Origin: a virus
Length of the DNA stretch: 64,000 nt
Reading direction: 5' to 3' (one strand)
IMG/VR virus record: IMGVR_UViG_3300028802_000008
Location: 13,320 to 77,319 of that record
Every line of letters begins with the position of its first letter. Within the stretch, counting starts at the first letter, position 1. Shown here piece after piece: positions 13,302 to 54,987 of the stretch. The position numbers and the translations under genes were made by a program. The notes beneath the pieces are model-generated. The model did no database searches. It was given only the letters and a program-made list of their open reading frames with translations, and was not told the DNA's origin.

Positions 13302-13601
13302 GTGAGGAGGAGAACCATGAAGAGTAACCAAGGGATCGTCTACATCACAAGGAACGGAAGGGCTCTGACCGGTGCGGAAATTGAAGTGCTCGTGGCACAA
13401 TCCGAAGTCGCAGAATTTGAAATGGCCGATCGCTTCCCACCGGGTCGCACGGAGCCAGATGCCGATTCCCGCATGGCGGCTCGCGCCATCAACCAGCAGT
13501 ACCAAGCCCTCATTCTGGAGGGGATGGATGATGATGTGGCCGTCCGAATCATCGGAATGATGCTCGCCAACGCCGCTGCCCTGTATGAGCAGGGGGAATG
13601 A
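13302..13601 (+). CDS. hypothetical protein
   Basis: Strong GAGGAG RBS. Confidence 0.65.
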   Translation: MRRRTMKSNQGIVYITRNGRALTGAEIEVLVAQSEVAEFEMADRFPPGRTEPDADSRMAARAINQQYQALILEGMDDDVAVRIIGMMLANAAALYEQGE

Positions 13602-23900: not shown

Positions 23901-26900
23901 CGCGGTTCCCTGCTGATCCCGGACAACGTCAATCGTCGGCGTGACGCCGTAAGTCAGTCCTGTCGTCGCTCCGTTGCGGAGGACACGGAAGCGGATGGTG
24001 TCGCCGCCAATGAATGCTGGCTTGCTGATCTGCACCGGGTAGACGAGTTCGGTGAAGTTGTTGCCAGGGAAGCCGAAGTCATCAACCAAGCCGTCTTCGG
24101 ACACCCTGCCGGAAGAGAAGGTACCGGTGCCACCGGTCAAACGATTGGTGGTGGCCTGGCCGTCGGTCAGAGACGGGTCGTTGTAGGGAGCGACCGACGC
24201 TGAAGCAACGCGTGTCTGCACTCGGAAGATCAAGTCATTGGCGGAATTCGCAGTCCACGTTCCCGCAGCCACTCGGGTCATCTGGTTGCCGCCATGAGCA
24301 GGTGACAAATCGGAGCCGTATCCCCAGGCATTAGTACCATCGAAGGCAGCACTTGCTGTGAGCACGATGACGTACCGGGTACCATTCACCAAGGTGAACG
24401 TCCCATCGAAATCGAAGTATTCCCACTGTCTGGTGGTGGTGAACGTTCCCGCAGTTCGGACGGTAGAGGTCGCTAGGAGCGTGGCACCAACACTGCTTGT
24501 ACCGTAGGTACCCGAATGGGAGAACAACTCAGCCTTGATCGTTGAAGTTGGAGCCCCGAGCCGACAGGCCCAAAAACCGGCCCTCCACAGAGGCTGTCCG
24601 TTGCCGGTGAACGATTGGCCTATCGATACTTGGTTGACTGCCGAGATCGATGACGTGACCGACAGATTCGCCTCACCATAAACATCGACATCGGCAAAGG
24701 TGTACCCGACATCTGCCCACGTCCCGACGCCGTTCTTCTCCCACTGAAGCTGCCAATCGTCGGTGGCGGGAAGCGGTGCTGCCGTCGTGGATTGCAACCG
24801 CACACGCAATTGACCAATCCCGTCACCCGTGTTCAGGTTGCCGAGGATGGAAGTATTCTGGGCACCCAGCGCGACGCTGCCCGACTCTGTGCCTTGGTCG
24901 TAGAACCGGTATGCCGCTTGATTGACCCCGACCGTAGCCGCGACCAAGTTGACGGTCGGGGTTTGACTGTACGTCATTCCCGTCGTCGCACCGTTCCTCA
25001 GGACACGGAAGCGAACGGAGTCACCGCTGACGAATGCCGCCGCATTCATCTGGACCGGGTAGAGCAATTCAGTGAACCCGTTCGCCGCGAAGCCCACATC
25101 GTCAACGAGGCCATCCTCAGACACCTTGCCCGCAGAGAAGGTGCCCGTGCCACCGGTCAAACGATTGGTAGTGGCCTGGCCGTCGGTCAGAGACGGGTCG
25201 TTGTAGGGGATTGTCGGGCCGTCGTAGACCCTGAAGAGCAAATCTTCGTTGATCTGAGTCCACGAAGTATCGAACTGAGATCTTCTGCCAAGATGCGAAG
25301 AGATAGTGTCAGCGGTTACCAAGAGGCTGTTCGGACTCGTCATGCCACTGGCTTCAACTGCGATGACGTAACCGACACCCTTGGTCAATGTGAGACTTCC
25401 GTCGAAGTCGAACCGCACCCAGGATGCTGTGAGCGAAATCGAACTCGCTAATTTCGCCGTCGAAGTGGCAAGCGCAGTACCGGTGGCCATTCCGTCGATG
25501 CCACCTGTCGTGGTGGCGTAGAGGGTGGCCGTGACATTTCCGGACACAGTCCCTTGTCGTGCCAACCAGAAGTCAGCCCGAGTCAACTTCGCCCCTGCAC
25601 CGAGGAATGATTGGCCCTCACGGATATAACCAGCTACCGGGTCACCGAGAATGATCACCTGCGGCGACTGCGGAGTCAAGTAAGAATCAAGAACTCCAAG
25701 ATCGAGCCATATCCCGGTTGAGTTCTTCTCGAACTGGAGTTGCCAATCGTCGGTGGCGGGGAGCGGCGCGATATTCGTGGACTGAAGCAGCACACGCAAC
25801 TGACCGAGGCCGTCACCAAGGGTGATGTCGCCAGTGTGCGCGGTGTTCTGTGCAGCGAGGGCAACGCTGGTGTTCTCAGCCCCCTGATCAAAGAACCGGT
25901 ACCCCGCTTGAGTCACGGCGGGAAGCGTCCTTGTGACGTTGATCGTCGGGGTAGACGAGTACGTCATCGTGTCACTGATGGCGTCGTTCCTCAGGATGCG
26001 GAAGCGGAGTACATCACCATTGGTGAGGTCGGCCTGTATCAGCTTGACGGTATACAGCAACTCTGTGTAGTTGTTCGCCGACCAGCCGACATCATCGGTG
26101 AAGCCGTCCTCCGCAACCTTACCCGCAACGAAGGTACCAGTGCCCGCTCCGAGTCGGTTGGTGGTAGCCGCTGCATTGGTGAGGTATGCTGAGTCATACG
26201 CCCTCGCCGTAGTCGTAACGGCATCAACATCTGTCCACGTCCCATTGGCATTCTTCTCCCACTGAAGACACCAATCATCAGTGGCGGGGACGAGAGTAGT
26301 CGTCGTGGACTGCAACCTCATCCGCAGTTGAGTATTGACATCACCTTGTGTGACATCGATCGTGGGAGCCGTGTTCACACCGGCAAGCGCCGTGCTGCCT
26401 GTCTCTGTGCCGTCGTTGTAGAAGCCATACGCAGCCTGTGTGACTGCGACCGGAGTGATGTCCTTGACTTCAACTTGAGCCGTCGACCACACATCGGAGC
26501 GGGAGACCGTCACCGAGACGGTCGCGGCACTGGTCGTCGTGTTCAAGCGATAGGTGCCGTAAGCTGGACGTGTGCCATTGGCGTCAATGAGTGTGTGGCC
26601 GGTCGGTGTCGGGATTACGACATCCGGACGAACACCGTTGGCGAAGCGGAGAACCTGTGAAGTACCGTCAGCGACCTGAAGCGTCATTGCCGCCCAAGTG
26701 ATCGACGTGGACGTGGCCCCCTGGTTGGCGCTTATTCCAGGAAGGCACTCCTTCCCGGCCGCGGGTCGGATCGTGGTGGAGACGCACCGGGCAGCACCAG
26801 TGAACGTCGGCATCGTCCAGACGCCGTCGTACTCACGGTACGACACCATGATCGACGGCGAGACGTTCCTGCTGACGCATGTCGTCCAGCCAGCGGGCAG

Positions 26901-27020
26901 CGTCGCCAGAGTGGCCGTCGTGCCGTAGGCCGCGACCATGACATAGTCGCCGCTTGCTGTGCCCGCGGGCAAGGTGGCTGAAGTTGTACCCGGTGTCCCG
27001 TTGGCTACCCAGGTTGCCAT
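17976..27020 (-). CDS. giant (3014 aa) repeat-rich fibre/adhesin
   Basis: Thr/Ala/Gly-rich; four related Y.FY...TTNRL...TEL modules, lectin-like inserts, about 43 [DE]xxD repeats of about 24 aa. Confidence 0.85.
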   Translation of the reverse strand: MATWVANGTPGTTSATLPAGTASGDYVMVAAYGTTATLATLPAGWTTCVSRNVSPSIMVSYREYDGVWTMPTFTGAARCVSTTIRPAAGKECLPGISANQGATSTSITWAAMTLQVADGTSQVLRFANGVRPDVVIPTPTGHTLIDANGTRPAYGTYRLNTTTSAATVSVTVSRSDVWSTAQVEVKDITPVAVTQAAYGFYNDGTETGSTALAGVNTAPTIDVTQGDVNTQLRMRLQSTTTTLVPATDDWCLQWEKNANGTWTDVDAVTTTARAYDSAYLTNAAATTNRLGAGTGTFVAGKVAEDGFTDDVGWSANNYTELLYTVKLIQADLTNGDVLRFRILRNDAISDTMTYSSTPTINVTRTLPAVTQAGYRFFDQGAENTSVALAAQNTAHTGDITLGDGLGQLRVLLQSTNIAPLPATDDWQLQFEKNSTGIWLDLGVLDSYLTPQSPQVIILGDPVAGYIREGQSFLGAGAKLTRADFWLARQGTVSGNVTATLYATTTGGIDGMATGTALATSTAKLASSISLTASWVRFDFDGSLTLTKGVGYVIAVEASGMTSPNSLLVTADTISSHLGRRSQFDTSWTQINEDLLFRVYDGPTIPYNDPSLTDGQATTNRLTGGTGTFSAGKVSEDGLVDDVGFAANGFTELLYPVQMNAAAFVSGDSVRFRVLRNGATTGMTYSQTPTVNLVAATVGVNQAAYRFYDQGTESGSVALGAQNTSILGNLNTGDGIGQLRVRLQSTTAAPLPATDDWQLQWEKNGVGTWADVGYTFADVDVYGEANLSVTSSISAVNQVSIGQSFTGNGQPLWRAGFWACRLGAPTSTIKAELFSHSGTYGTSSVGATLLATSTVRTAGTFTTTRQWEYFDFDGTFTLVNGTRYVIVLTASAAFDGTNAWGYGSDLSPAHGGNQMTRVAAGTWTANSANDLIFRVQTRVASASVAPYNDPSLTDGQATTNRLTGGTGTFSSGRVSEDGLVDDFGFPGNNFTELVYPVQISKPAFIGGDTIRFRVLRNGATTGLTYGVTPTIDVVRDQQGTASFNHNWTMTATGVAPVAGVKQGTASFSHNWNLTATGENGSEGTAAFNWSSGLTAVGKRNPVGQAFLNHQWAISATGSTGEAEMSEGTAAFNHSWSFTAEATPIVAQFWFADTGPHPGINRGDRAFILRGTLLPHLTWLWGDAPLGVVSSPNVATVPGPIPGIEVDFATQQIHHWITLPIDRNVTISGNVDLQLWQMGTAGAANSAVNCVVDRMDSQGNIVSEIFRSTNVVPSTGTSTKMNFTATATSTNLLKGDRLRARIFFDDAPAGQNMASGTATTAIGGAAGAASEAYVKFAQPFAVQKTEPNGSKLYLKDTASIDTGTPAAPANLAFYESATWFTGYPTGTQRTITGVSWNAGDRIYVAGGTESSINSQGFSVPTNANLLFQQVNAAASTGGTTECSAWIWVAVAASSQTNQTISANFTILSGNSASGLCAWVVPGAIGEANGGNSRTEASQTAILQRNSTLLYFCADFNSLNPNGKTPLAASGTVTARRAAGDGTAFGQNIIDWQGVAGGSTTFGLNNYTSLTVAQVWVEVLRDGPMNEKEMWTDRGPISATAQVNTVLGWTPAIQWTSTPGANPLEWYSKTLNAFTLDGLVGLNLRIFQSTSGTASCRAELAICNADGSGAVIWGAGSIVNTPAPGGNWVNQQNGRLPTAETAIKGWLAGATTAVATGKRLRLRVFIDDEDISPLSSGRTASLVYNGPVANTTGDTWIQLPQVVTEYVPAVTVSKYRFYFDGTETSSAAAAAENSAAAISDVVQNLQLRVQLQSTNDLPIPSTTDWQLEYDSFPPVLYAPVPNAGIIAYTDSVNLTDQNATTARLSAGTGTFVAGRVTEDGRADDVGWSGNNYTELVFSIQTNFLGLEDSDSFAFRVVPVAEAGAPTVTQGVIPQLIVSLGAAGSSSGSMAPTDGRDTLASRVDVYRGIIATTDGRDTLAPTVDTQVPVFTGTLALTDGADTLTSGVTFTAVRTATLDVSDRLDVIGASVSAEEPGTYETDLILVDGRDTLAASVNAQQLFQSTLSATDDPDELAATGSTTVPTFDSTVARTDGVDTLEASVEALGITTGALVATDGLDTMVAAASRTVPVFTSENVVVTDGQDTLVATATAGTFGAAIITVTDGVDTMVATATAGTVQTATLDLTDGADALVATPSTTAPTYTGTLALTDGADTLVASGDRTVPIFIGLASATDNPDTLVASGSSTVPIHTGTLVLTDNIDTITAAGTTTAPIFTGTLALTDQPDTLVAAATAGEFQTSSLARTDGLDAIVTTVDATVPTFTSTLSISDRVDTLVAPAETVVPTHLSTFAQTDNRDTLVAASESLPPPNVTSLLYTEAADTIASTGVSTPPGLNAFLSLFDGLDTLALTVSTTAPTYTSTLALTDNADTLTSVPTAAPPEQASTLSVSDNPDTLAVVVTTTPPTLTGTLVVVDRIDTLATSVDTEPPTLLGTAAATDSRDTLVASASAFIPTFDSTLVLTDGVDDMVATANHAPPGDSAGAITVTDGEDTLVATATAAIPTFSGALVVTDGRDTLVAVLQVIPINDASIVLTDRTDTMVAQATADVPTLVSALVITEAPDTMVATASTVVPTFTSSLVITEAPDQIGAVGTSAAPGNSAAAFTVSDGLDTMVAAATRTIPTISAALVVSDGVDTLEATPDFLAVNVLIFVLPDGQDTMRAFADTVVPMLLSTMSGGDNRDTMVGSAQSEIPIFTSTLGFIDGADNLDATATAAVPLATSTVVFTDGRDTLSASVSAVVPLHTASVDLSDGLDTLVANVVAGAVGAGVLGITDGLDTMVATASTTPPTLTGTLAVPDGRDDLVAEAVTVPPVHSSTLVLADKPDTLVAVGVGTPPLHESTLELTDGSDTMAAAVVHVVPTFSSTVLVGEGRDTFAAVGLHSPPGNSAGGFGAVDGRDTMAAAALCLFGHTILSGYKLEMRRLDALRACIRIDEEREMERKDKRTVIRPATSEKGILVP
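18150..21190 (-). repeat. about 43 tandem repeats of about 72 bp (24 aa; TDGxDTLVA consensus)
   Basis: Counted in the translated C-terminal third of the giant ORF; boundaries approximate. Confidence 0.9.
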
Positions 27021-35623: not shown

Positions 35624-38029
35624 TTAAGCTGTGATCTCAGTGTAAGTAATATTGACGGTCGTCATTTCTGACAGCCCAACTCCAGCCAGGCGGGTGATGC
35701 GAGCACTTTCCAAACCCACGGACCACACATCCCCGAATGGGTTGCGAAGGAACAATTCACACCCGGAATCTCGCAGTTCCTCAAGGATCAACCTCTGAAG
35801 ACGAGCCGACTGCTGTGGAACGTCGCGGAAGGTTGCCGTGAGAGATCCGGTGTATCCAAATCTTGTTCCATATTCCACACGACGACCGCGACCAATCAAC
35901 TTGGTCACAGCCATCTCCTGCTCATCCTCAAAGTCATCAGCAGTGACGTGGTGCAGAGTGAGGTTCATGTCCATTTCAGGACACACGATTATGTATTGAG
36001 GGCAGTCACCGTAGAACGGGGAGATCGGGTAAGCCGACTCCACGTTTGCTCCCTGATTGAAGGAGACTTGAACGACTGAGTATTCAAGGTTGGTTCGCGT
36101 CGGCGCAGAGTAATCGTTGAAGCTTCTCGTATCGACAGAGAAGAACGCCAACTCCTGCCACGTCATGTAGCCCTTCGGACGACGAAGAACTCTCCAACCC
36201 ACCCAAGCCGCATCTCGGGAACTATCAGACCAATCGAGAATCACCAATCCATACCCCCCGAATCGACTGGTATCCAACGTGAAGATAGGGGTAGCGGGAA
36301 GAAGGTAAGCGGAAGTGAAGTTGTTGGTGACCGTCCTTGTCAGCCCAGACGAATCCGTCACAACCAGGGTGACGGAATAAGGCTTATCCACCAGAACCAC
36401 AGGATTTTCCAACCTGTAGGAAGTCGCGTTCCCCGACACAGTGCCTGAGTCAGCAACGACAAGCTGACCGTTCACGTCGGTGACGTACACTCGGTAGTTC
36501 ACTTGAGTTCGACCCGCAGAAGCTGCGAAGCTCCATGTGATGGTCGGCTGAGCCGTGTTGATTACCTGACCGTTCGTCGGAGAGGTCAACGTCACCGTTG
36601 GAAGATCGCGCAGGAAGAATCCCTGATCGATGGAATAAGCACCGACGACGTTGTCCTGGTCGTAGACCCTGACACGCCAGCGAAGCTCCGTATCCTTCCA
36701 AGTGGCATCCAGCGCAGTCCAGGTGCCGGTCTGGCTCCCGGAGACGACGATTCCTGTCGTCTTGACGGTGCCCGGAGCGGAGGCCTTCCACAACTCGGCC
36801 TCATACTTGAGTTGGAAGTCCTGTGGATCTGGATCTTGGAACTGCCAGGTACCGATCGCCGTGTTGTTCGCCAAATAAGCGATACTCGTGCCCGAACCAG
36901 GGAGACGATTAGCCGTGGTCGGTGGATGCGTGATGGCAAAGGAGACCACGGTGGAGAGGGCACTCACCACCCCGAACTCATCCGTGGCCTTACATCGTAG
37001 ATACCAAGTACCCTGAGGCAATCGTCCTGCGCCGTAGGTGGGAGTGAACGGCAGCGACTTACTCGTCTCGTAAGTCGTCTCAGCATAGGAAGCATAGGTC
37101 GCAGCGAAGTTGCTGGTGGTCGACAGTTCCCATGTTCGGATCATCTTGACACTGCTCGCCATAGCAGCGACCGTGGCATTGAACGTCGGCCGCGATGTCG
37201 TCTGCGTGGTGGTCGGAGCAACGTTCGTCGGCACCGACACCGGGATCGCCATCGTGAAGGCTGAGAATGCCGACCAGGCACCCGCTGTCGTCTTGACGGC
37301 ACCTGAACCGTTGTACGTCCTGACAAAGAAGCGATAAGCTGCACCGTTGCTGAGATCGCCACTGGAGAGCCAACTGGAAGTCGTACTCGTGACGACGCCG
37401 GAATCCACCGTGTTCGGTGACGTATCGACGTTGAACCCACCGACCGTGGCTTGAGCCAAAGTGAAGATCTTGACCTGGAAGCCAGCCTGCGTCCCACCCG
37501 TGGCCGCATCATTGTGTGTCCAGGTCAGCGTTGGACGACGACTGGTGGTCAGCCCCGTGGCGGCGAGAGCAGTCGGAGCAGTCGGGATTCCAAAGTAGGT
37601 GACATCCAGATACGCCTCGTAGAAGCGGGCAACAGTGTTCGCGCCCGTGACGTGGACCGAACCGAACACCTGCACGTCAGCCCCCGCCGACGTGACCGCC
37701 ACCGGAGTGGTATTGACCGTGGTGTACTCAGTCGCCAGGCTCGCTGTGTGGGTGTGGTCGCTGTAGCCCGTGGCCAAAGCGAAGTAACAAGCCGTCGCGG
37801 TGCGAATGCCGAATCGCCGAGATGTCACCACGTTCCCAATCGGAACAGTGAAGTAATAACCGACGTATCCGTCCTGACCATTCAGCGGAAGCCAGCCAGC
37901 CACGTTGGTGGTCTGCGTATACGAAGCATCCAGGTCGTCGCTAGCAGCCAGGATGTGGGTGGCAGCGCCGACCAGAACACCCGAAACGTCAGGTGTGACG
38001 TTGGTGGGTCGAAGAGTAGCTGTGGTCAT
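35624..38029 (-). CDS. minor tail protein with FN3/Ig-like domains
   Basis: Repeated PT.TW, Y.FFVR and WRVRV.D motifs; LRNPFGD C-terminus. Confidence 0.8.
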   Translation of the reverse strand: MTTATLRPTNVTPDVSGVLVGAATHILAASDDLDASYTQTTNVAGWLPLNGQDGYVGYYFTVPIGNVVTSRRFGIRTATACYFALATGYSDHTHTASLATEYTTVNTTPVAVTSAGADVQVFGSVHVTGANTVARFYEAYLDVTYFGIPTAPTALAATGLTTSRRPTLTWTHNDAATGGTQAGFQVKIFTLAQATVGGFNVDTSPNTVDSGVVTSTTSSWLSSGDLSNGAAYRFFVRTYNGSGAVKTTAGAWSAFSAFTMAIPVSVPTNVAPTTTQTTSRPTFNATVAAMASSVKMIRTWELSTTSNFAATYASYAETTYETSKSLPFTPTYGAGRLPQGTWYLRCKATDEFGVVSALSTVVSFAITHPPTTANRLPGSGTSIAYLANNTAIGTWQFQDPDPQDFQLKYEAELWKASAPGTVKTTGIVVSGSQTGTWTALDATWKDTELRWRVRVYDQDNVVGAYSIDQGFFLRDLPTVTLTSPTNGQVINTAQPTITWSFAASAGRTQVNYRVYVTDVNGQLVVADSGTVSGNATSYRLENPVVLVDKPYSVTLVVTDSSGLTRTVTNNFTSAYLLPATPIFTLDTSRFGGYGLVILDWSDSSRDAAWVGWRVLRRPKGYMTWQELAFFSVDTRSFNDYSAPTRTNLEYSVVQVSFNQGANVESAYPISPFYGDCPQYIIVCPEMDMNLTLHHVTADDFEDEQEMAVTKLIGRGRRVEYGTRFGYTGSLTATFRDVPQQSARLQRLILEELRDSGCELFLRNPFGDVWSVGLESARITRLAGVGLSEMTTVNITYTEITA

Positions 38030-41000
38030 CTCACTTGTCCCAGAGACTTGAGGTTGGTAATGAATCGATCAGCATCATGCGGATCTGTGATGTTCGGGAA
38101 GGACAGATCACCATAGAAGTTGAGCGTAACGTTCTCGCCACTCTCTGATTTGCCGTGCAGTGGCGTCACTTGAATAGCTTCATCATGCAATCCTTCGCCC
38201 ACCCTCAGGAGGGTTCCTCCATTGGTGCGAGGAACAACCAGTCCGCCGCGAGCAAGGGCGGCATGGACGTGGTTGATGTGCTCACGCATGAGAGCAGGAG
38301 AGAAGCTGTGATCCGCTCCCCGGAAGACGTTCGTCGCCCCCGGTCCACCGTAAATCAGTTCCTTCAATTGAGGCTTGAAGGCGCGGTAGATGGCATGGTT
38401 GATATCCAACAAGTCATGAGGACTGTAGTTGATCATGCCCGACGGCCCCGAAAGGTCGATGGCTCGATCCTTGCCGTGCCAAGAAGGCTGACCAGTGTTT
38501 CGGGTGATAGCTCCGGGGCGGTAGGTGCTCAGAATCTTGTACGGAATTCCCAACGCCTGAAGGACTGGAGGAATGGCCCTCCACGAACCTGCCCCCGCCT
38601 CCACCTGAGGAGGCAATCGCTTGCTTGCTTCCTCATTCCAAGCATTGTCTGCTCCCGTGATCCAGTCATTGACTGCATTCAGTACGCCTTGTCCTGAATC
38701 CTTGAGGAACTTATTGGGAATGCGATTGACAGCTTGCTGAGCAAGCCAGTGAGCAGGATTCCAGAGAGTCTCAATAGCTTTGTCCTTGAGGAATCCTGTC
38801 ACCTTGCCGATACCGCTCTTCGCTGCATTGAACCCATTTTTGACGATGTCGCCGATGCCAAAGAGGTCCATGTTGGAATAACCCTGCTCATCTTCACCGA
38901 ACACATGTCCGAGTTCGGAGTAGAGGCCGCGAGCACGCTGACGATACTTGGGATCGGTCGGGATGACGAACTCGGGGAAGATGTTCGATCCTTCGCCCAC
39001 CAGAGCGCGCATTCCGGCAACGGCACCACCCTCTTCGCCAACCACACCACCCTTGGCGAACCGCGGTACGGCTCCACCCGAGCCGCCGCCGCCGCCATTC
39101 ACTGCTGCATCGGATTCTCCCGTATCGAAGTTCCATTTGAGGGCATTCAGGCTGACTGGGTCCATATGGCTGACTTTGTGGCCAATGCCCAACAGGGACG
39201 CCACAGCATTCACCGCATCGGCAACCAAGTTGAACGCACCGATGAATCCGTTGATACCGCCAGCGATCGTGTCCAGAATTCCGTTCCAAACCCCAGAGAT
39301 AAGCGATCCGATCGCCTCCATGATCGGCTTGATGACACTGTTGTAGAGCCATCTCAGCGCAGCCTGAACAGGAGTCAATATCTCCTGGAATCCAGCGAAG
39401 ATTCCTCTGATCGCGTCGTAACCAATTTGAACGATCGACGTGATCGCATTCATCACCGGCTGCATGACGTTGTCCCTCAGCCAGTTCATAGCGGGGGTGA
39501 TCAAGTTGTCAACAACCCACCTGACCTGATCTCCAAACCATCTGAAGGCTGGCACCACAAGCGTATCGATGATGTAGTCGATGGCAGTGAAGATCTCTTC
39601 CATGACAGCCCACATCCCCTGGATGGCTTTCCAGACGATGTCGGCAACGTCAACAACCCTGTCACGAAACCAATCAAATGCCTTGACAACGACGTTCCTG
39701 ATTATCCAGTCCAGGATGTCGAAGACATCTGTGATGAAATCCACCATGATCCCGATGGCAGTGGAAATCCATCCCGCGACATCGTCAATGTGGTCCCATA
39801 CCAATCCGAAGACATCGATGAGAAGGTGGAGATAGTCCACCCAGAGATCGAAGTATTCCTGAATGATCCACCAAGCCGCCTGGATGATCTTCCAAATAAG
39901 TGTGAACACGATCTCCACAGTGACGAAGATCAACTGCAAGATCGGAATGATGTACCCATCGATGTAGCCCCAGAGAGTCTGGAAGATCGGGTAAATGATA
40001 TTCCAAGCTGCCATGATGGCTCCGGAGATCGCTCCCCAGACCGTCGCAAAGACATCGACCAATCCTCCCACTACGGAAGCAATGGCACCGAATACCGGCA
40101 TGATCACGCTGTTCCAAATGGTGCTGAGAACTCCTCCGACGCCCCGGAAGAAACCGATGACCGCTCCCACTACGCCGCGGAAGAAGCCCCAGATGGCCGA
40201 ACCCAGATCAGTGAAGAAGTCCCATATCGACGTAGAGAAATCGACAGTAGACCCACCCAGAGAAGCGAAGAAGTCAGCTACCGGCTGAACAAGATTATCC
40301 ATCAACCATTGACCGATGCCCAGGAGCACATCGTACATCGGCTTCAAGATGTGGTCATAAGTCCACTTCGCTACGGGGCCAGCGACGTAGGCGATCGCCG
40401 CGCCGAGGGCTGCGGCGATCAGAGGACCGAATGGACCGAACACAAGGATGAGCACTGCCGCCAAAGCACCGATCAACAACTGTGGCCAATGCTGCTTCAT
40501 CCAGTCAGGAATAGACTTGAAGACTTCAATAGCCTTATCTTTCCACCCCTTGAGCTTGTCGATGCTGTCTCCGAATGCGGCGAAGATATCGAAGTCGCCC
40601 ATTTTCTTCATTGCTTCATCGATCTCAGTTTCCAACTCCTTGTTGAAAGCCTCGATGTCAAACAGATCACCCTCGCGACCGAGAGTCGAATCTCCACCAG
40701 CAACGTCGAAGTCGACTCCTTCACCGGCAGCAAAGAGACTTTCCTCATCACCCTTCTTGGTCTTTTCGATGTTGGCCGCGGTCTCAGCCATCGAGATGTA
40801 GTCCGCCATCTCGGATTCCATCTCAGAGATCAAGTCTTTGATGTCTCGATACGCATCTTCAAGTTGATCCAACTTGGTCTGCTCAATATCAAGCTGGTCA
40901 CCCACCAACTCCTGCGCCGCAGCAGCTTCCTTGGCGACCGCCTGTGCTTCTTTCTGCTTCTGCACCAATCCGTCGTATTGTGGTTGAAGTTCATTAACAA

Positions 41001-43701
41001 TCTTCTGCTGTTCAGTGATACCCGCGATGATCTCATCGAAAGTCAACTCTTCAACGCCATTGACCATCTGATCGATCTCACGAACCAGCGGATCGAATGT
41101 GATGGACTTCGTCAGGTCAAGGAATCGACCCTCCAGATCCAACTCATCAAGTTGATCCTGAATAGCCTGGATCTCATTCTGAGAATCCTGGAGTCCACCC
41201 TTCTGATCCTCCAGAGCCTTGATCTGCTCATCGTAAGCACCGAGAACATCGGAGCCAGCCCCCGCCAATCGGAGGTCTTCGCGCTTGCCTCGCAGCATCT
41301 CGATGTCCGCGTTGAGTGCTGCCCATTTCTCTTGGATCTTTTCGATCGATGTCCCGGCTCGCTCAAACTCCAAGAGCCTCAAGTTGAGAACATTCTGCGC
41401 CTGAGAGTTGGCGAAGATCTGATCTTCCATGTCCCTCATGCCAGCGATAGGAGCACTGGCGAAATCGTTCAGCTTGCTCTTGGCAGCGTCCAGTCGCTCC
41501 CCAACAGCGTCCAACTCGTCCGTGATGGCATCGACCACATCATTGGCCTCGTCCATTCGTTGGGTCGCGGCGTCGTAGGCACGGCTCAGATCGTCCACGA
41601 TCCGGCTCTGTGCCTCGATTTCGACGGTCAACGGCTCCAATGCGGCGTACAACTCGTCAATGCTGTCCGCCATCACCGCAGCGGCGTTTCCAGCAGCCGG
41701 GTTCATTGCCGTGATCTTCGCCACATCAGCATCAGTCTTGGTGCGCCGGAACCCGGTGATGTCATTGCTGGCAACGGCCCGGAACGCTCCCAGCGACGCC
41801 ATCGCCCGAGCCACGGTGGCCGGAATCGACTTCAACCGATCGTACTCATCCAGGATGGTCGACACACCCGCCCTCACGTTGTCGACCAGCGACGGTGAGT
41901 GACGAGCAAAAGGATTCAGGTACGACAGAAGATCAACCACAACTTCCATCGCCCGCCCCAGAACGTGGATAACGTTCGTGAAGACCTCCGCCATGATGGA
42001 AGGCAATTCAGCAATGGCATCCACGATGCTCTGGAAGACCCGAATGAAGGGGTCTTCGATGTCTGTCGTGAGAACCAAGGCAATGGCCGCGGCAACAGCA
42101 ACGATGATGGCGAGCACAGCCCAGACCGGAATACCGAGAGTGCCAGCAATAGCGCCAACGATCGTCCACAGACCCGTCAGGATCGGCTGCACCACCAGCT
42201 TGTAGAATTGGATACCGATGTACCTGAAGGCTCTGGCCAACGTCTTGGCTCGTCTCCACACCAACGTACTGAAGACATCAATGACTGCCATGAGGTTCAG
42301 CAACGACCCAATGACGATCAGAATCGGACCAACGATCGCGACGAGCGCCAGCCCGTACAAGATGATCCCTCGGGTCTTGGGGCTCAACTTGGCGAAGGCA
42401 TCCGCCAACTGACGGATGAAGTTCACGATGTTCATGATGACCGGGATCAACGGTATGAAGGCCGACGCCATCGAGTTCTTGATCGAATTGGTCATGATGT
42501 CCCACTTTTTAGGGTTGGAATCAAGAACCTGCATCAACTCTTTCTGATACTGCTCCGCGTCATCTACTGGGCCGTTGGCCGCTTCCATCGCTTTGGCGAA
42601 GTATCCGGTGGAGGACGACACGTCATCCATCAGAACGTCGAAGCGCGAGACCTGCCACCGGGACGCGATCGTGCTGGAAGCAATTCCTCTCTGAGCCGTG
42701 GAGAGATTGTCCCACTGACCCGCAAGCATCTTAATCTTCTGAGTGGCAGTGGCACCCAGCCAGGAGGGATCGGAGACCGTAAACCCAATCTCCTTCAAGA
42801 CATCAACTGTCTCCTGCGTGGGATCTTGCAACCGAGAGAAGATCGTCTTGAGGGCGTTACCGGCTTGAGCCGCACTGCCTGTCGCCGGAACGAGAGCCGC
42901 AGCGAACCCCGCCAATTCATCAATCGTCACACCAGCAGAACGAGCAGAACCGCTGGCTCGCTGAAAGACCTCCACCAAGCCCGCCATCGTGATGCCGGTC
43001 TCGTTTTCCACGATGTTCATGATCGACATCGCCTTGTGGAGTTCACTCACTCCACCAGCAGCGTCATAAGTCGACAGACGCCATTGGGCTTGGATCGCGA
43101 TCAAGGCCTCCGTGGCTGAGGCCGCGTCCATCTCACCCAGAATCATGAGTTCCAAGGTGGCCCTGGTGTTCTCTGCGAGCCCTCGACCAGACGAACCAGC
43201 CGATGCCCAGGCAGCGCCGATGTCGATGACATCGGTCTGGAGTACGCCGAACCGTGTGCTCAAAAGCTCAAACGATTTGGACAAAGCCTCGGTCTCAGCC
43301 TTGAGCACGTTCTGATCTTCACCCAGGTTGCCATAGACCTTACGGACCTGAGTCATGGATCTCTCAAGGTCCATGTTGAACGAGAACAACGCCTTCCCCG
43401 CCAATACCAACGGGAGGGTAAAGTTGAACGCCAACTGACGCCCAACCCAAGTCATGTTCTTGCCCGCTTTACTCAGGGCATTGTTCGCCAACAGACTAGA
43501 GAAGCTCTGCTGAGCTTTTACCGCTTCTCGGAGCTTACCCAAGTAAGCACCCATGCCCGAAGCATTGGCACTCAACCCTTTGGCGTTTGCTCCCAGCGCA
43601 CCACCAGCACCGATCGCCTTTGCAGCGGCAGCGGTGGCAGCGAGTTGAGCTTGCGCCTGCTTCGCTGCCACCCTGACGACGATGTTGAGAGTTGCGTTCA
43701 T
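38026..43701 (-). CDS. tape measure protein with C-terminal peptidase-like domain
   Basis: 1891 aa; TP901-like core, Trp-periodic repeats, STYRPG...SWH...RAID...H.NHVH. Confidence 0.92.
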   Translation of the reverse strand: MNATLNIVVRVAAKQAQAQLAATAAAAKAIGAGGALGANAKGLSANASGMGAYLGKLREAVKAQQSFSSLLANNALSKAGKNMTWVGRQLAFNFTLPLVLAGKALFSFNMDLERSMTQVRKVYGNLGEDQNVLKAETEALSKSFELLSTRFGVLQTDVIDIGAAWASAGSSGRGLAENTRATLELMILGEMDAASATEALIAIQAQWRLSTYDAAGGVSELHKAMSIMNIVENETGITMAGLVEVFQRASGSARSAGVTIDELAGFAAALVPATGSAAQAGNALKTIFSRLQDPTQETVDVLKEIGFTVSDPSWLGATATQKIKMLAGQWDNLSTAQRGIASSTIASRWQVSRFDVLMDDVSSSTGYFAKAMEAANGPVDDAEQYQKELMQVLDSNPKKWDIMTNSIKNSMASAFIPLIPVIMNIVNFIRQLADAFAKLSPKTRGIILYGLALVAIVGPILIVIGSLLNLMAVIDVFSTLVWRRAKTLARAFRYIGIQFYKLVVQPILTGLWTIVGAIAGTLGIPVWAVLAIIVAVAAAIALVLTTDIEDPFIRVFQSIVDAIAELPSIMAEVFTNVIHVLGRAMEVVVDLLSYLNPFARHSPSLVDNVRAGVSTILDEYDRLKSIPATVARAMASLGAFRAVASNDITGFRRTKTDADVAKITAMNPAAGNAAAVMADSIDELYAALEPLTVEIEAQSRIVDDLSRAYDAATQRMDEANDVVDAITDELDAVGERLDAAKSKLNDFASAPIAGMRDMEDQIFANSQAQNVLNLRLLEFERAGTSIEKIQEKWAALNADIEMLRGKREDLRLAGAGSDVLGAYDEQIKALEDQKGGLQDSQNEIQAIQDQLDELDLEGRFLDLTKSITFDPLVREIDQMVNGVEELTFDEIIAGITEQQKIVNELQPQYDGLVQKQKEAQAVAKEAAAAQELVGDQLDIEQTKLDQLEDAYRDIKDLISEMESEMADYISMAETAANIEKTKKGDEESLFAAGEGVDFDVAGGDSTLGREGDLFDIEAFNKELETEIDEAMKKMGDFDIFAAFGDSIDKLKGWKDKAIEVFKSIPDWMKQHWPQLLIGALAAVLILVFGPFGPLIAAALGAAIAYVAGPVAKWTYDHILKPMYDVLLGIGQWLMDNLVQPVADFFASLGGSTVDFSTSIWDFFTDLGSAIWGFFRGVVGAVIGFFRGVGGVLSTIWNSVIMPVFGAIASVVGGLVDVFATVWGAISGAIMAAWNIIYPIFQTLWGYIDGYIIPILQLIFVTVEIVFTLIWKIIQAAWWIIQEYFDLWVDYLHLLIDVFGLVWDHIDDVAGWISTAIGIMVDFITDVFDILDWIIRNVVVKAFDWFRDRVVDVADIVWKAIQGMWAVMEEIFTAIDYIIDTLVVPAFRWFGDQVRWVVDNLITPAMNWLRDNVMQPVMNAITSIVQIGYDAIRGIFAGFQEILTPVQAALRWLYNSVIKPIMEAIGSLISGVWNGILDTIAGGINGFIGAFNLVADAVNAVASLLGIGHKVSHMDPVSLNALKWNFDTGESDAAVNGGGGGSGGAVPRFAKGGVVGEEGGAVAGMRALVGEGSNIFPEFVIPTDPKYRQRARGLYSELGHVFGEDEQGYSNMDLFGIGDIVKNGFNAAKSGIGKVTGFLKDKAIETLWNPAHWLAQQAVNRIPNKFLKDSGQGVLNAVNDWITGADNAWNEEASKRLPPQVEAGAGSWRAIPPVLQALGIPYKILSTYRPGAITRNTGQPSWHGKDRAIDLSGPSGMINYSPHDLLDINHAIYRAFKPQLKELIYGGPGATNVFRGADHSFSPALMREHINHVHAALARGGLVVPRTNGGTLLRVGEGLHDEAIQVTPLHGKSESGENVTLNFYGDLSFPNITDPHDADRFITNLKSLGQVR

Positions 43702-49768: not shown

Positions 49769-50875
49769 TTACTTGGAAGACGTGAGGGTCTGGAGTTCGA
49801 TGAACGAGGACTTCTTCGCGAGATCATCCTCGGAAATCCCGGTGGCTCGGTGGTTGGCCACGATGCCCTGGAGAATGCTGATGCGATCCTCCGCGGCGTC
49901 ACCGGGGGCGGGAGTTCCACCCTGACCCAGATCGTGCTTGCCGAACAGGTTGGCCGGGGCCATCCCTTCAAAGCCAGTCTTGAAGGCCGTGAACTGATCA
50001 GCATTCATCGTCTTCACAAGTCCGTGGAATGCCACGCCCTGTGGGCCGGTGATGACCTTGCCCGAGACCAGGCCATCCACGAACGCTGCTCGTGCGCTGT
50101 CGATCGATTCTGTACGGAACGTCTCCAGTTCCGTGATGTGTTGCTGCACCCTGGCGTAGTCGTTGACCTCCACGCCATCAAGGCGGAACGACTGCACCTG
50201 GAACTGAGCGTTGCCGTGAGCGCCGACCGGCTCGGGCTGCTGCACCGGGGGCTGTGTGGCTTCCGCGGGCGGTTCCGCAGGCGGTTCTGCGGGCGGCGGC
50301 GTCGCGGGCGGTTCCGCGGGCGGGGTCGCGGGCGGATCAGCAGGCGGAACCTGAGCGGCTGGAGTCTTCGTGTCTGTAGCCATATCTTCTCCTGAGTTGG
50401 CAATCCGGTAAAGTCCTTCGACCGCCGGGTGATCTACAAAGGCGAGACCAAGGACGACAGGATCATACTTGGTTCCGTCATTCGCGATGTAAGCACCGAT
50501 TTCGATCGAACGATTACGCCACTTCTTCGCATCCCACTTTTCCTTGTCCGCTTGGGAAGTGAACTCCCAATCAGCAAAGAGGAAATCACCAAACCGACGA
50601 ACGTTGGTGATGTACCCCACAACGTCTTTGATCGACTGGGTGTGATCCTCCCGAAGTGGCACGTTCGGAACGATGTTGGCGTCTCTCAGCTTGTAGAAGT
50701 TCTCTACAGCAAGATCGAGATCATCCGATGTCCAGACCCGAGTCTGGTGATTCATCGAAGTGAACGTGCCGACCCGAAAGATCTTCTGATCGCGCACCTG
50801 CAAACCGCTATCAGCGGCTACAGCGAGATCAAGATCGGAGAAGCCGAATTGGGTGCTTCCCTGGATACCGGTCAT
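49769..50875 (-). CDS. capsid maturation protease/scaffold (Mu I/Z-like); internal scaffold start at 50383
   Basis: GTF, DH, SIE, LGLAFVDHPAV; AGGAG then ATG at 50383, Pro-rich scaffold. Confidence 0.8.
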   Translation of the reverse strand: MTGIQGSTQFGFSDLDLAVAADSGLQVRDQKIFRVGTFTSMNHQTRVWTSDDLDLAVENFYKLRDANIVPNVPLREDHTQSIKDVVGYITNVRRFGDFLFADWEFTSQADKEKWDAKKWRNRSIEIGAYIANDGTKYDPVVLGLAFVDHPAVEGLYRIANSGEDMATDTKTPAAQVPPADPPATPPAEPPATPPPAEPPAEPPAEATQPPVQQPEPVGAHGNAQFQVQSFRLDGVEVNDYARVQQHITELETFRTESIDSARAAFVDGLVSGKVITGPQGVAFHGLVKTMNADQFTAFKTGFEGMAPANLFGKHDLGQGGTPAPGDAAEDRISILQGIVANHRATGISEDDLAKKSSFIELQTLTSSK

Positions 50876-50924
50876 GGGCAGCGATGATATACCCAAGACC
50901 CGTGACGCGGTCCAGCATTGGCTA

Positions 50925-51161
50925 TCACTGAGGTTTGGTGATCTGCATCGGTTGACCGAGTTTGATCTTCCAAACTCGTTTGCATTCGCGACACACAATC
51001 TCGACCCGTCCACCGATGGCTCGCATGTCCAAGAGGCTCCTTGCGCCTTTCATATGCCTTACCCACACAAACGGAACGCCGTCCTCGATTCCCGCCTTGG
51101 CAAGCAACGGCGTTCGGGAACATTCGCAACGAATCTCCTGAGGCGCGTCGAAGTCAGCCAT
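50925..51161 (-). CDS. Com-like zinc-ribbon protein
   Basis: EIRC.C...LLAK...VEIVCREC. Confidence 0.6.
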   Translation of the reverse strand: MADFDAPQEIRCECSRTPLLAKAGIEDGVPFVWVRHMKGARSLLDMRAIGGRVEIVCRECKRVWKIKLGQPMQITKPQ

Positions 51162-51654
51162 TCAGCTTGCGCTTTGGAGACTTATTGTTGGCTTGCTGAA
51201 TTGGTGTTGCCCACCGACAATTTGAAGGCTCGTAGTTGCCGTCATTGTCGATTCGATCCAAGCTTGTCCCCTCTGGCCGTTCACCCATGTCCGCCAGGAA
51301 TGTAGCGAAGTCGCTCCATGCTGGACAGACCGAGATTCCTCGCCCACCGTACCGGGCATACTGAGTCATCTTGGGGTTATTGCACCGCTGACGCATCGAG
51401 TCCCAACTGTTGTAAGTAGGGGTTTGACCACCAGCCGTGTGTCCATGCTTTGTCAACTTGGCCAGCGTCTCGTCAGAATGCTTCATGCCTTTGCGGGTTG
51501 CACTCATCTTCGCTCTGGTCTCTTCGGGCCGCGATCTGCCCTGAAGGGAAGCACGAATCTTCGCCTTGGTCTCCTCGGAGCACGGTTTGCGTACCCTGGC
51601 CTTATGAGTTGCACTCATCTTCGCTTTGGTCTCGTCTGAGTGCTTGTAACTCAT
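51154..51654 (-). CDS. HNH endonuclease with NUMOD3 repeats
   Basis: Four (H/C/R)(S/P)(D/E)ET.AK repeats; W.SM.QRC, YGGRGI.VC, DRIDNDGNYEP.NCRWAT. Confidence 0.9.
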   Translation of the reverse strand: MSYKHSDETKAKMSATHKARVRKPCSEETKAKIRASLQGRSRPEETRAKMSATRKGMKHSDETLAKLTKHGHTAGGQTPTYNSWDSMRQRCNNPKMTQYARYGGRGISVCPAWSDFATFLADMGERPEGTSLDRIDNDGNYEPSNCRWATPIQQANNKSPKRKLNG

Positions 51655-53081
51655 CCGTTCAGCTTTCCGCCAGAGCCAGGGCGAGTCACTCCTGCGGGAG
51701 TGTTCACGACCCGTTCTGGACGGTCGCGTTGCCGAAGATCAGGGGCGTTGCCCACCGGAGCATTGGGATCACCCGGAACCGGTTTGTTCTGAACCTGTCG
51801 CACTTCCTTCAACGTCATCCCGAGAGCCATCCCGAGTTGATCGATGTCAGGCATCATCTTGCCGCCCGAGATCAGTCCGGTGGCGATGGCACGAATCGTT
51901 TCGACGTTGTCCTTGCCGAGAGGTCGAATCTTCCACTCCACCCGCGGAGCGTTCGGAGAGAAGTTGTAATCCTTGATCCGCTGGAGGATGTAGGGGTCGA
52001 TGTATTCCTTGATGTCCATCGCCAAAGCGTTCAGCGACCACAGCCAAGTCTGCGTGTGCTGGACGCCGAGATTCAGCGACCCGTGCTCCCCCGCCCGCAT
52101 CAACAGCATCGGCGTGAAGATCGAAAGACTGATCTCCTCGTCCAATCGAGCGAGGTACCGCTCAAAGTCAGCACCCCGCATGTTGGACTCAAGATAACTG
52201 ATGTCGTAGGTGTATTCGCTTCCAACCGACGCCGAAGGGTCACGATCAGACGGCAACGTGACGGAACCACCGGAACGCAAACGCTCCAAGGATTCCTCGA
52301 TGACCTGCTTGCCGGTCTTCTCGATGTCGACACCGGACGCGTCCTTGTACTGGAACTCTTCCTGAAAGGGAGCACGCCCGATCGGTGTGGGCTCACCGAA
52401 CCGCTCAAAGTACCGATTGGAGAACAGGTGCATCAGGAGTGAGAAGTACCACGGAGCGAAAGCAGCCTCCAGAAGCTTCCGTCCGTAGTAGTTCCCGTGC
52501 TCACGCAGAAGCGGATACCACAGGGTGTGCTCGGGTGGCACCGGGTATCCGAGACCGATCTTGTCGATGCCGTCGTAAACCTTGACCTTCGGCGGAACGG
52601 TGTTCGCCCCGGTCACGTCCTGCGGTCGCGGGCGGTAGCTACTGGGGACTTCCTTCCAGTGGACCGCCGCCTGACTCGGATGGATGTCCTTCACCTTGTC
52701 AATGAAGACGTTCTGTCCGTTGTTGGCGTTGTCCCACTCCAGCACCATCGGCGAGAAGCCGGCCCAGTAAGCGGTTGAGAGTCCGCGGATCAACTCGGTC
52801 CAGATCAGACGGAGGTTCTCCTCCACGACATCAGCGATCTTCTGATCTTCGCACTCGACGTACCAGTCGCACTGATGCAGCATGAACGACATCAGACAAA
52901 GCGAAGCATTCACCTGTGGATGTGTCCGCATCTCGGAAAAATCAGCCAGCGTCAACTTGCTCGTGTCGAACATGATCGCCGGAAGCCCCATATACGACTG
53001 GAACGGTCGTCCCGAACCCTGCTCAAACGTCGCACCAAGTGCAGGAGGATCAGCTTTCCTGAAGTAAAACGGTTCGCTCAT
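51651..53081 (-). CDS. portal protein (Mu gp29/DUF935-like)
   Basis: AYWAGFS..LEW, GNYYG..L, ERFGEP. Confidence 0.85.
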   Translation of the reverse strand: MSEPFYFRKADPPALGATFEQGSGRPFQSYMGLPAIMFDTSKLTLADFSEMRTHPQVNASLCLMSFMLHQCDWYVECEDQKIADVVEENLRLIWTELIRGLSTAYWAGFSPMVLEWDNANNGQNVFIDKVKDIHPSQAAVHWKEVPSSYRPRPQDVTGANTVPPKVKVYDGIDKIGLGYPVPPEHTLWYPLLREHGNYYGRKLLEAAFAPWYFSLLMHLFSNRYFERFGEPTPIGRAPFQEEFQYKDASGVDIEKTGKQVIEESLERLRSGGSVTLPSDRDPSASVGSEYTYDISYLESNMRGADFERYLARLDEEISLSIFTPMLLMRAGEHGSLNLGVQHTQTWLWSLNALAMDIKEYIDPYILQRIKDYNFSPNAPRVEWKIRPLGKDNVETIRAIATGLISGGKMMPDIDQLGMALGMTLKEVRQVQNKPVPGDPNAPVGNAPDLRQRDRPERVVNTPAGVTRPGSGGKLNG

Positions 53082-53082
53082 A

Positions 53083-54987
53083 TCACTGCCTCGTTGGTGG
53101 TCGCCACATCATGGGGTCGGTGCCGATCCTCGGAGGGATCGGCGCACGAGCCGACATCCCTGAGAAAGCTGGGTGAGAACCAAGCATCGCATGAGTGCCA
53201 TTCATAGCAGAGTCCTCCCCCTGGCTGTCCCCCATTGAAGTATCCGAAGCGAACCTTCTATGGAACCGGGTTTCGCCCATGATGCTGGAAACAGTGCAGG
53301 CGATCGCGTCGGCAATGTCCTTGGAGCCGTCCGGTGGATGGTCGATCTTCATCCCCTCGTCCTGGAGTTGCGACAGTTCCTTGTAGACGATGTCGATCAA
53401 CGACGGATCAGTGATGGAAGCCGGGACCAGATACGGGGGGATCGCCACTCGATCCTCCACGATGGCGTCATGCAGATCGAAGTAGGGCAGCGTGCTCTTG
53501 TCAGCGGAGATGACCTCGGTGAGAATCCGACGACGGCTGAACTGCTGACGCATGTCCGTGCTCTGGAACCCATCGGTAGTGATCTTGACAATACGGAACT
53601 TGCGCTCGCGTTGCAGTTCGTAGATCAACGAACGGATGTCACCCAGGAAGATCTCACGGCCCGGAGGAGCCGTGATTCTCATCACTAGGTCGAAGGTGAT
53701 GAAGGGCTTCCGATCTCCATCCACCGTGATAAGGTCAGAGACGTGAGCAATGGCCAATCCAAGGGCATCGCCATCGGGGCTGTAGGCCACGTCGATATGA
53801 CCAATACGGGGAACCGAGTTGTCGGCCTTGAGGTCGTCGTGAAATCGGTTCTTGGAGTCCACGGGAATGAAGTCCCCGTACTTGGCGACATAAGCCTTCC
53901 TTGCATCATCAATCCGTGACGGATCGTGGAACAACGGCGAGTTGACAGCGGGCGGTCGACCAGCCAGATCACGGAGAGCCTTCTGCGGTGAGTTGAGGAA
54001 GTCCCGCTCGTACACACGGGGCACTTCCAAGACGTGTTCCGGGAATCCCTGGAGGCGAGCCAACTCCATCGTCGTGAACTCGTACCGCTGAGAGTCGTAC
54101 CAGAAGGAGTCGCGGCTTCCGTCCGGACGAAGGTACTTCTGCCATCCCATCGACTCCCAGATCGTGATCAGGCTCGTGTACGCCTGCGGATCGAGCCGCA
54201 TCTCTCGATACTTCTTGGCAGCGAAGCCCGCCGACTTCTTCATCTGACCGATAACGAGCAAGAAGCCACGGTTGTCGAAGCGCGACGTGATGCGGCCGTG
54301 GATCGTGGTGTAGCCCTGTTCGGCGTAGTCCTTGTTCTTGGTGATCTTGTGTGAGTCGGCCTCGTCCAGAATTCCGCCCAGGATGTTGTAGCCCTCAAAG
54401 GTGGTCTCGGCCGAGTCACCGGGGATGATCCAGATGTCCTTCTGGTCGAAGCGGAACTGCGTCTTGAACGTCGGGTTGTACCGGTAGTTCGCCCGGAACC
54501 AGGGCGAGTGATCGATGCGGGCTTTGATGTCGCCGAACACGACCTCCTTCGCCTGCGCCTCAGAAGTCGACATCTGCATGAAGGCGATGCGGCTTCCCGG
54601 CAACAGATTGAAGTATTCCTGGGGGTCTTTCAAGCAAAGCACCCAATGGGTCATGTAGGGAATGACGATCGATGCCAGTGTCGTCTTGCCCACGCCGATC
54701 GCCCCGGTAAATATCGCCCGCTCGTACTGAGCGATGCGATCAGTGTTCGTCTCCAATCCGAACAAGTCCATCAGGATGTTCTTCAGGCTGTGACGAACCA
54801 GCCGCTCGATGTTCAGGTAGTCGGGGCCGAGGAACTCGTAGATCGACGCGGGGCGTTGCTCAAACTCAGGATGATCCTGAAGCCACTTGAACTCAGCCTT
54901 CTGACGCGCATCCCCTGAGAGTAAGTTAATCAGTGTCACTGTAAGATGCCTCGATCGCCTTGCGGTAGACCGGAGGATCTTCACCAC
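53083..54987 (-). CDS. terL: terminase large subunit (true start probably about 54940)
   Basis: GAIGVGKT Walker A, ILDE Walker B, HID, DGFQS, IDHP..GSKDIADA. Confidence 0.9.
   Translation of the reverse strand: MVKILRSTARRSRHLTVTLINLLSGDARQKAEFKWLQDHPEFEQRPASIYEFLGPDYLNIERLVRHSLKNILMDLFGLETNTDRIAQYERAIFTGAIGVGKTTLASIVIPYMTHWVLCLKDPQEYFNLLPGSRIAFMQMSTSEAQAKEVVFGDIKARIDHSPWFRANYRYNPTFKTQFRFDQKDIWIIPGDSAETTFEGYNILGGILDEADSHKITKNKDYAEQGYTTIHGRITSRFDNRGFLLVIGQMKKSAGFAAKKYREMRLDPQAYTSLITIWESMGWQKYLRPDGSRDSFWYDSQRYEFTTMELARLQGFPEHVLEVPRVYERDFLNSPQKALRDLAGRPPAVNSPLFHDPSRIDDARKAYVAKYGDFIPVDSKNRFHDDLKADNSVPRIGHIDVAYSPDGDALGLAIAHVSDLITVDGDRKPFITFDLVMRITAPPGREIFLGDIRSLIYELQRERKFRIVKITTDGFQSTDMRQQFSRRRILTEVISADKSTLPYFDLHDAIVEDRVAIPPYLVPASITDPSLIDIVYKELSQLQDEGMKIDHPPDGSKDIADAIACTVSSIMGETRFHRRFASDTSMGDSQGEDSAMNGTHAMLGSHPAFSGMSARAPIPPRIGTDPMMWRPPTRQ

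Follow-up and report, generated by a model that had tools for sequence, protein, structure and literature searches.

Positions 13,320 to 77,319 of the 77.3-kb virus record IMGVR_UViG_3300028802_000008 in IMG/VR, a 64-kb stretch that we refer to as the window, contain a free-standing nuclease gene whose last codons repeat those of the portal gene immediately upstream. We propose, with a confidence of about 85%, that this is a homing-endonuclease-type gene that was inserted at an 8-nucleotide (nt) overlap between the portal gene and a small zinc-ribbon gene, with a duplicated portal tail keeping all three genes whole. The site lies within the head module, where the three minus-strand genes at the junction are the portal gene (51651-53081; 476 amino acids, aa; PF06074 Portal_Mu, E 1.3e-25), the nuclease gene that is the putative inserted element (51154-51654; 166 aa; a NUMOD3 plus HNH-like protein by its matches to NUMOD3, PF07460, and to PHROG families), and the zinc-ribbon gene (50925-51161; 78 aa), whose product has a CxC...CxxC pattern.

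Two copies of the portal tail flank the nuclease gene

The portal gene closes with the codons GGC and GGA followed by AAGCTGAACGGATGA, read together as GGKLNG*. The final 15 nt form the upstream copy of the repeat (51651-51665, minus strand), which holds the last four codons and stop of the portal gene and also the ATG of the nuclease gene. The nuclease open reading frame (ORF) opens at the ATG of GGATGA, with no earlier start codon in the open frame, and overlaps the portal stop by 4 nt. At its other end, the nuclease gene closes with AAG and CGC followed by AAGCTGAATGGCTGA, read KRKLNG*; this downstream copy (51154-51168, minus strand) holds the last four codons and stop of the nuclease gene together with the start of the zinc-ribbon ORF, whose ATG lies in ATGGCTGA and overlaps the nuclease stop by 8 nt. 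The two 15-mers are identical at 13 of 15 positions, with both differences synonymous, and a repeat search returns the tails as an 18-nt direct repeat (15/18 identical) with its copies 497 nt apart, leaving 482 nt of unique DNA between the 15-nt copies. The outcome is that the portal, nuclease, and zinc-ribbon proteins are encoded by a chain of three overlapping reading frames. An earlier note on this DNA had described the shared tail with its synonymous differences, the ATGA that the portal copy supplies to the nuclease gene, and the overlap that the nuclease copy supplies to the next gene; every letter that it quoted is present, as are both overlaps.

The downstream copy is still in use, providing the zinc-ribbon start codon and the nuclease stop, and no unused remnant is left behind. 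It contains stops in two of the three frames, with the final TGA in the portal frame and, in the zinc-ribbon frame, a TGA directly before the ATG. The nuclease frame enters this copy in the portal's frame and therefore reads K-L-N-G-stop, and we infer that KLNG on the nuclease is a by-product of the duplicated DNA, there being no hint that the nuclease needs it. When both junctions and three empty sites (described below) were folded as RNA, the z-scores were -0.2 to -0.8, such that no structure stands out, and a promoter and terminator scan of the coding strand across 50700-52000 found none above shuffled expectation.

A separate direct repeat of 14 nt (13/14 identical; CGGTGGGCAAC[A/G]CC on the coding strand) is present at 51203-51216 and 51744-51757, joining the part of the nuclease gene that encodes CRWAT to the portal 3' region. 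Its copies lie 541 nt from each other, a spacing that does not coincide with that of the 497-nt repeat, and the match is borderline, with ~0.04 expected by chance in this stretch.

Relatives carry the empty site

Two close relatives, L002 and L005 (portals 90% and 89% identical to that of the window, respectively), have no nuclease gene. Their junction reads GGCAAGCTGAATGGCTGA, within which the zinc-ribbon ATG lies inside the portal tail, 8 nt before the portal end (GGCGGCAAGCTGAATGGCTGAATGG). L005 comes from a different metagenome than L002, yet is close to it. L003 (71%) and L004 (68%) have other portal tails and the same 8-nt overlap, there as GTGCCTGA, again with no nuclease gene. The empty site that the earlier note had predicted, in which AAGCTGAATGGCTGA follows directly, is thus found letter for letter in L002 and L005, and a global alignment of the window with L002 opens a single large gap, of 489 nt, at the junction.

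The absence extends well beyond these four. A profile scan of viral contigs provided 80 portal loci (~77 distinct), and scans of metagenomes and genome contigs contributed L005, a close locus, and L166, a distant one. No copy of the nuclease family was found by tblastn in the ~77 distinct portal-relative loci, in most of which the zinc-ribbon start either abuts the portal stop or overlaps it by 4 to 20 nt. Nor did the complete records of the three closest relatives yield a member of the family, in a search that detects the copy in the window genome. Because empty sites and absence span the portal relatives, insertion in the window's lineage is far more parsimonious than repeated scarless loss. 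The whole stretch is found in one sequencing run only, a soil metagenome. Run X1, which is probably the source sample, contains the filled form only. In run X2, relatives are represented by short contigs that cover either flank but leave most of the nuclease gene bare; none of them spans the junction, and this run carries no weight either way.

The shared tail itself could be a coincidence, and this was evaluated with a genome-wide control that took in every mechanical ORF of 60 aa or longer across the 77-kb genome. The chance of a shared four-residue C terminus, a matter raised in the earlier note, proves to be low: non-adjacent same-strand pairs share four or more C-terminal residues in a row in 5 cases of 104,641, compared with 1 of 253 adjacent pairs, and that one is the portal/nuclease pair. 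The earlier note would have been contradicted by nuclease homologues in other contexts ending in KLNG, and none of 119 does so. These homologues have short basic tails after CRWAT..EQ..N, a pattern that KSPKR fits here, with KLNG as an extra. Portal homologues behave differently: 13 of the 14 closest (66-90% identity) have a tail of the G-G-x-L-x-x type, G-G-x-L-(N/R/S)-(G/A) or similar, with examples including GGKLNG, GGNLNG, GGQLNG, GGDLNG, GGDLRG, and GGNLSA, and among the portals of 72-77% identity (P0122-P0130), compared through their protein tails, x-L-N-G is conserved. Since this tail type is shared by 13 of the 14 closest homologues, KLNG is, as judged by comparison of these proteins, the portal's own end. 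A coincidental tail match is excluded by the exact empty site together with the genome-wide control.

In two distant portal relatives, an unrelated gene of 185 aa with unknown function lies between the portal and zinc-ribbon genes (L054:2424-2984 and L079:4662-5219), starting on the portal stop (ATGA in L054 and GTGA in L079) and without a shared tail. The junction has therefore been used by another insert too.

Two silent differences and the origin of the copies

Relative to the L002/L005 empty site, the upstream copy differs by AAT>AAC, which removes the zinc-ribbon ATG, and by GGC>GGA, from which the ATGA start of the nuclease gene arises. Where the upstream copy reads ACG, each of the four empty sites reads NTG, and each ends the final sense codon with C, at the base that is the A of ATGA in the upstream copy. 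In the empty sites that C is also the middle base of zinc-ribbon codon 2 (GCT or CCT); the upstream copy is freed from this constraint, and the C there is now A, giving ATGA. Read from the sequence, an unchanged upstream copy would start a 19-codon out-of-frame ORF and would leave the nuclease frame without a start before codon 13. There are 27 possible pairs of synonymous changes at different K-L-N-G codons, and just one of them, the pair observed here, does both jobs, which lends modest support to the idea that the two changes were selected.

The downstream copy with its two preceding bases is identical to the L002/L005 empty site at 17 of 17 positions, whereas the upstream copy matches L002 at 15 of 18, with all three differences synonymous. 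This contrast is what would be expected if the element had arrived as a cassette with its own recoded portal tail from a donor phage, in which case the upstream copy is foreign and the downstream copy is the displaced native tail. The other nuclease gene in this genome (see below) has the same polarity with an 18-codon tail, and the pattern has been described for atp6, atp9, cox2, and nad3 (PMC3630166). Nonetheless, a contrast over 15 to 18 nt is not significant. The portal DNA of the window is 86.9% identical to that of L002 overall and 80% identical over the last 60 nt, such that 15/18 is the background level for the portal 3' end, and 17/17 has a probability of ~0.09 at that background. We regard a donor cassette as less likely than not; it is a sub-model of the proposed insertion with a duplicated tail and does not contradict it.

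The nuclease gene product

The N-terminal part of the protein (residues 3-68; 51451-51648, minus strand) contains four NUMOD3-like repeats, presumed to be a DNA-binding module. The assignment draws on a Pfam match at residues 3-18 (PF07460, E 1.1e-9), on DNA direct repeats D1 and D2 (45 and 31 nt) within the region, and on modelled helices at residues 7-21, 27-37, 44-56, and 61-67. The putative nuclease domain follows (residues 69-157; 51184-51450, minus strand), with a predicted beta-beta-alpha element at residues 131-157, and the PHROG HNH endonuclease families 374, 3377, and 2081 are matched at E values of 1e-32 to 1e-41. Eleven residues are invariant in 47 homologues (W84, R90, R134, Y141, N145, C146, W148, A149, T150, Q154, and N157), and a near-invariant H-G-H is present at residues 70-72. 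All of the family-invariant positions are intact and there is therefore no sign of decay.

An AlphaFold (AF2) model built with the 47 homologues has a mean predicted local distance difference test score (pLDDT) of 88.8, rising to 95-98 in the nuclease domain, with strands at 131-134 and 146-149 and a helix at 151-157 at pLDDT >95. The top match among solved structures is PacI (VIA Z 5.2, root-mean-square deviation 4.0, 84 residues, 21% identity), a weak match and the only one above helical noise; PacI is also the top Foldseek hit, again weakly (E 0.28), and other weak structural matches are HNH enzymes such as I-HmuI and Gme. Foldseek against PDB gave no match at E 0.001 or better, and a PDB sequence search with the nuclease returned nothing relevant. 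Where HNH_3 has H-I-C-D, the whole nuclease family has an invariant D-R-I-D, with Arg134 as its arginine (residues 133-137; 51243-51257), in an alignment that is not significant.

More than 1000 phage records contain homologues, in unrelated settings that include DNA polymerase regions, and several of these homologues are annotated as homing or HNH endonucleases. The protein is the sole member of its cluster; identity to the best relatives is 49-70% and covers part of the length. The GC content at third codon positions (GC3) is lower in the nuclease gene (0.62) than in the portal gene (0.73). The insert contains no second ORF, its sole ORF matches only the NUMOD3 and PHROG nuclease families, and the repeat search found no terminal inverted repeats.

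Proposed assembly of the junction and competing explanations

The most likely account is that a free-standing gene, encoding four NUMOD3 repeats and an HNH-like nuclease domain, entered this phage lineage exactly at the 8-nt overlap of the portal and zinc-ribbon genes. The junction has no spare base, and therefore an insertion would be tolerable only with the overlap present twice. The upstream copy would then complete the portal gene, with AAT>AAC erasing a useless zinc-ribbon start and GGC>GGA making an ATGA at which ribosomes ending the portal could start the nuclease; the downstream copy, unchanged, would start the zinc-ribbon gene via ATGGCTGA and give the nuclease its KLNG and stop. The locus would thus offer a base-level view, with a matching empty allele, of a selfish nuclease gene settling where no spare base exists, and fifteen duplicated bases with two silent changes would suffice to keep three overlapping genes readable. 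For annotation, it also accounts for the way in which a nuclease ORF can end in a foreign-looking C terminus, and suggests a simple test for mobile insertions, namely a gene end in two copies and a relative with one.

Several considerations weigh against this interpretation. No Pfam HNH model matches the nuclease, PF01844 and PF13392 having been tried, and nuclease activity is not assured because the invariant Arg134 appears to occupy the position of the canonical catalytic histidine. There is no sign of recent spread, since no relative is more than ~70% identical and the cluster has a single member. Only one genome carries the insert, and its history is not readable from several filled alleles. 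Which copy came with the element is not settled by divergence over 15 to 18 nt, and translational coupling of the three genes is suggested by their overlaps alone.

The reverse history, in which the nuclease gene is ancestral and the L002 and L005 empty sites arose by precise deletion between the 15-nt repeats, seems very improbable. Recombination or slippage between flanking repeats would regenerate the exact L002/L005 sequence, and readable junction DNA is available from four close relatives only. But relatives ranging from 90% to 44% portal identity all lack the nuclease gene, most of them with a tight junction, and portals of 72-77% identity keep the x-L-N-G tail; loss would have had to occur many times independently and without a scar, where one gain suffices. 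We give slightly less credence still to a packaging accessory role, with an HNH protein recruited for head assembly or DNA packaging rather than selfish, like those encoded beside the terminase genes of cos phages. The gene does sit in a module of terminase, portal, HNH, zinc-ribbon, protease, decoration protein, and capsid protein genes, and HNH genes adjoining cos sites and terminase genes are described in one report (PMC3592412). Nonetheless, the nuclease is absent from every relative examined and has no match to PF01844, its NUMOD3 repeats are homing-endonuclease modules, and its homologues are found in many unrelated contexts. Least probable is a target-site duplication by a transposition-like event, or a coincidental shared tail: a direct repeat of 15 to 18 nt does flank the insert, but the insert lacks terminal inverted repeats and a second ORF, its matches are to nuclease families only, and chance is excluded as noted above.

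A second nuclease gene with the same layout

Searches of this genome with PF13392, PF01844, PF01541, and the family profile found two nuclease genes, and both have the tail-duplication layout. The other gene (2207-2659; PF13392 HNH_3, with the nuclease at the N terminus) starts at an ATGA on the stop of the gene at 1656-2225 and ends with that gene's last ~18 residues, VAKALYDAAG[L/M]SPWSAT[T/S], spelled differently with many synonymous differences. There is no overlap with the gene downstream, which has an AGGAGG ribosome-binding site of its own. The two nucleases are unrelated (BLASTP E 0.19), one having HNH_3 and the other NUMOD3 repeats with a C-terminal nuclease domain that has no Pfam match. 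The upstream gene of the second nuclease (P0241) was not seen in the relatives' records, which are fragments and uninformative on this point.

The presence of one layout in two unrelated families had led the earlier note to suggest a general rule. For 80 other viral-contig loci of the portal-junction nuclease family, the 3' end of each nuclease ORF was compared both with the DNA near its start and with the ORF ends located there, with cross-locus shuffled pairings as the control. The best values were 12/15 nt, a two-residue C-terminal run, and 4/12 last residues, and all three distributions are near the control with a slight excess at the top only. By the same measures, the window has 13/15 with a four-residue run for the portal/nuclease pair and 10/12 for the other nuclease gene. 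The tail-sharing layout is therefore not a family property, because the 80 loci stay near the control. The earlier observation thus stands as far as two unrelated families in one genome share the layout of tail plus ATGA, and the general rule does not survive.

A conditional statement is supportable, namely that when such genes land in a gene end or overlap, only insertions supplying a second copy of the end survive. Whether a duplicated host-gene end is a selected and recurrent way for homing genes to enter the gene ends and overlaps of compact phage genomes, where conserved targets lie, with both neighbors kept translated and the element's own target broken up, is more doubtful; we consider it unlikely on balance, its basis being the two unrelated nuclease families with this layout in one genome. 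If it were true, then the layout could be used to search metagenomes for such elements and for the corresponding empty sites.

Genome setting

The terminase large subunit gene lies upstream of the portal gene (53083-54987, minus strand; PHROG 2), and beyond the zinc-ribbon gene there is a head maturation protease-like gene (mechanical ORF 49769-51013, minus strand; PHROG 976), followed by a decoration-like gene and then the major capsid protein gene (PF03864). The zinc-ribbon gene sits after the portal gene in most portal relatives examined, and in L002 and L005 it is 86% identical across residues 1-78 (tblastn). Its product has no Pfam match up to E 5, and it matches PHROG 6679 and 20049, neither of which has an assigned function. 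The earlier note had called it Com-like, a label that we do not retain, as the cysteine motif was its only basis; we take the resemblance to Com to be in the CxC...CxxC pattern only.

The protease-like gene probably starts at the ATG at 50875, because the N terminus M-(T/A)-G-I is conserved in L002-L004, and the mechanical start at 51013 appears to be too far upstream. Between the zinc-ribbon gene and this likely start are ~49 nt (50876-50924) that are apparently non-coding. These nucleotides, ~240 nt from the insertion, were left unused, and therefore the position of the insert fits placement by target preference of the nuclease; we infer that this preference, and not free space, may have determined the site.

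Additional observations were made in the course of this analysis. The terminase large subunit of L004 (L004:1209-3995) is 928 aa compared with 609-639 aa in the others, and its extra block, which begins with C-I-V-G, ends with H-N-S, and has an HNH-like motif inside, looks like an intein. The portal homologues P0132, P0135, P0142, and P0164 are 742-823 aa long, match the 476-aa query over 60-72% of its length, and may be portals with inteins or other insertions. Elsewhere on the minus strand of the window there are two very long ORFs, at 17976-27020 (3014 aa) and 38026-43701 (1891 aa).

Comparison with known systems

The nuclease gene shares with free-standing homing endonuclease genes its presence or absence at one precise site among close relatives, and the joining of a nuclease domain to a modular DNA-binding domain (NUMOD3). 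It differs from recently mobile homing genes in that there are no near-identical copies in other genomes (its cluster having one member), and from the packaging HNH genes of cos phages in that it is not conserved by the terminase and portal genes in relatives and lacks a canonical HNH domain (PF01844). PacI (PDB 3m7k, 3ldy), a rare-cutting HNH restriction endonuclease, is the best, though weak, structural match of its nuclease domain; unlike the window's protein, PacI is a restriction enzyme without NUMOD3 repeats.

T4-like phages have free-standing HNH genes such as mobE between or within nrd genes, according to two reports (PMC2790892; PMC3045599). The gene described here is similarly a free-standing HNH-type gene, sporadic, and beside essential genes, and host function is retained in the T4-like cases. 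In Aeh1, where mobE lies within nrdA, that gene is split in two and its product is reassembled at the protein level, whereas here the duplicated junction leaves both neighbors whole. For mobE, cleavage and homing have been demonstrated; for the nuclease in the window they are putative. The abstracts of the same reports describe no duplicated junction for T4 mobE or Aeh1 mobE, literature word searches found no phage precedent for one, although such an absence is not proof, and no conserved flanks are reported for Xanthomonas phage HNH genes (PMC2248197). Within this genome, the other nuclease gene (2207-2659) is alike in its ATGA start on an upstream stop and in the repetition of the upstream tail at the ORF end, and differs in belonging to an unrelated family, in its tail of ~18 codons, and in having no downstream overlap.

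The closest analogue of the portal/nuclease arrangement appears to be the 'gene hybrids' formed by mobile endonuclease ORFs (mORFs) in fungal mitochondria, which are known from atp6 of Allomyces macrogynus and from atp6, atp9, cox2, and nad3 of Glomus (PMC3630166). In these, a LAGLIDADG or GIY-YIG ORF is flanked by two copies of the host gene's C-terminal part, one inserted and one native, and the differences are mostly synonymous (PMC3630166). The likeness extends to several features: an endonuclease ORF stands at the 3' end of a host gene between two C-terminal copies, the host protein is intact, and most of the differences between the copy in use and the native copy are synonymous. The polarity of the hybrids, with the foreign copy upstream and the native copy downstream, would also fit the values obtained against L002 here (15/18 and 17/17, respectively), although with the background at 80-87% a contrast over 15 to 18 nt does not distinguish the two copies. 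The differences are that the host is a phage, the nuclease is HNH-like, and the duplication is of 15 nt only; that the downstream copy still serves two genes, starting the next one and ending the nuclease ORF, and is not a dead remnant; and that the site is a two-gene overlap in which start codons have been re-wired in the upstream copy. The principle is thus known from fungal mitochondria and the portal junction opens no new field; it is a tidy, uncommon case of a known kind of mobile element and not an instance of a general rule.

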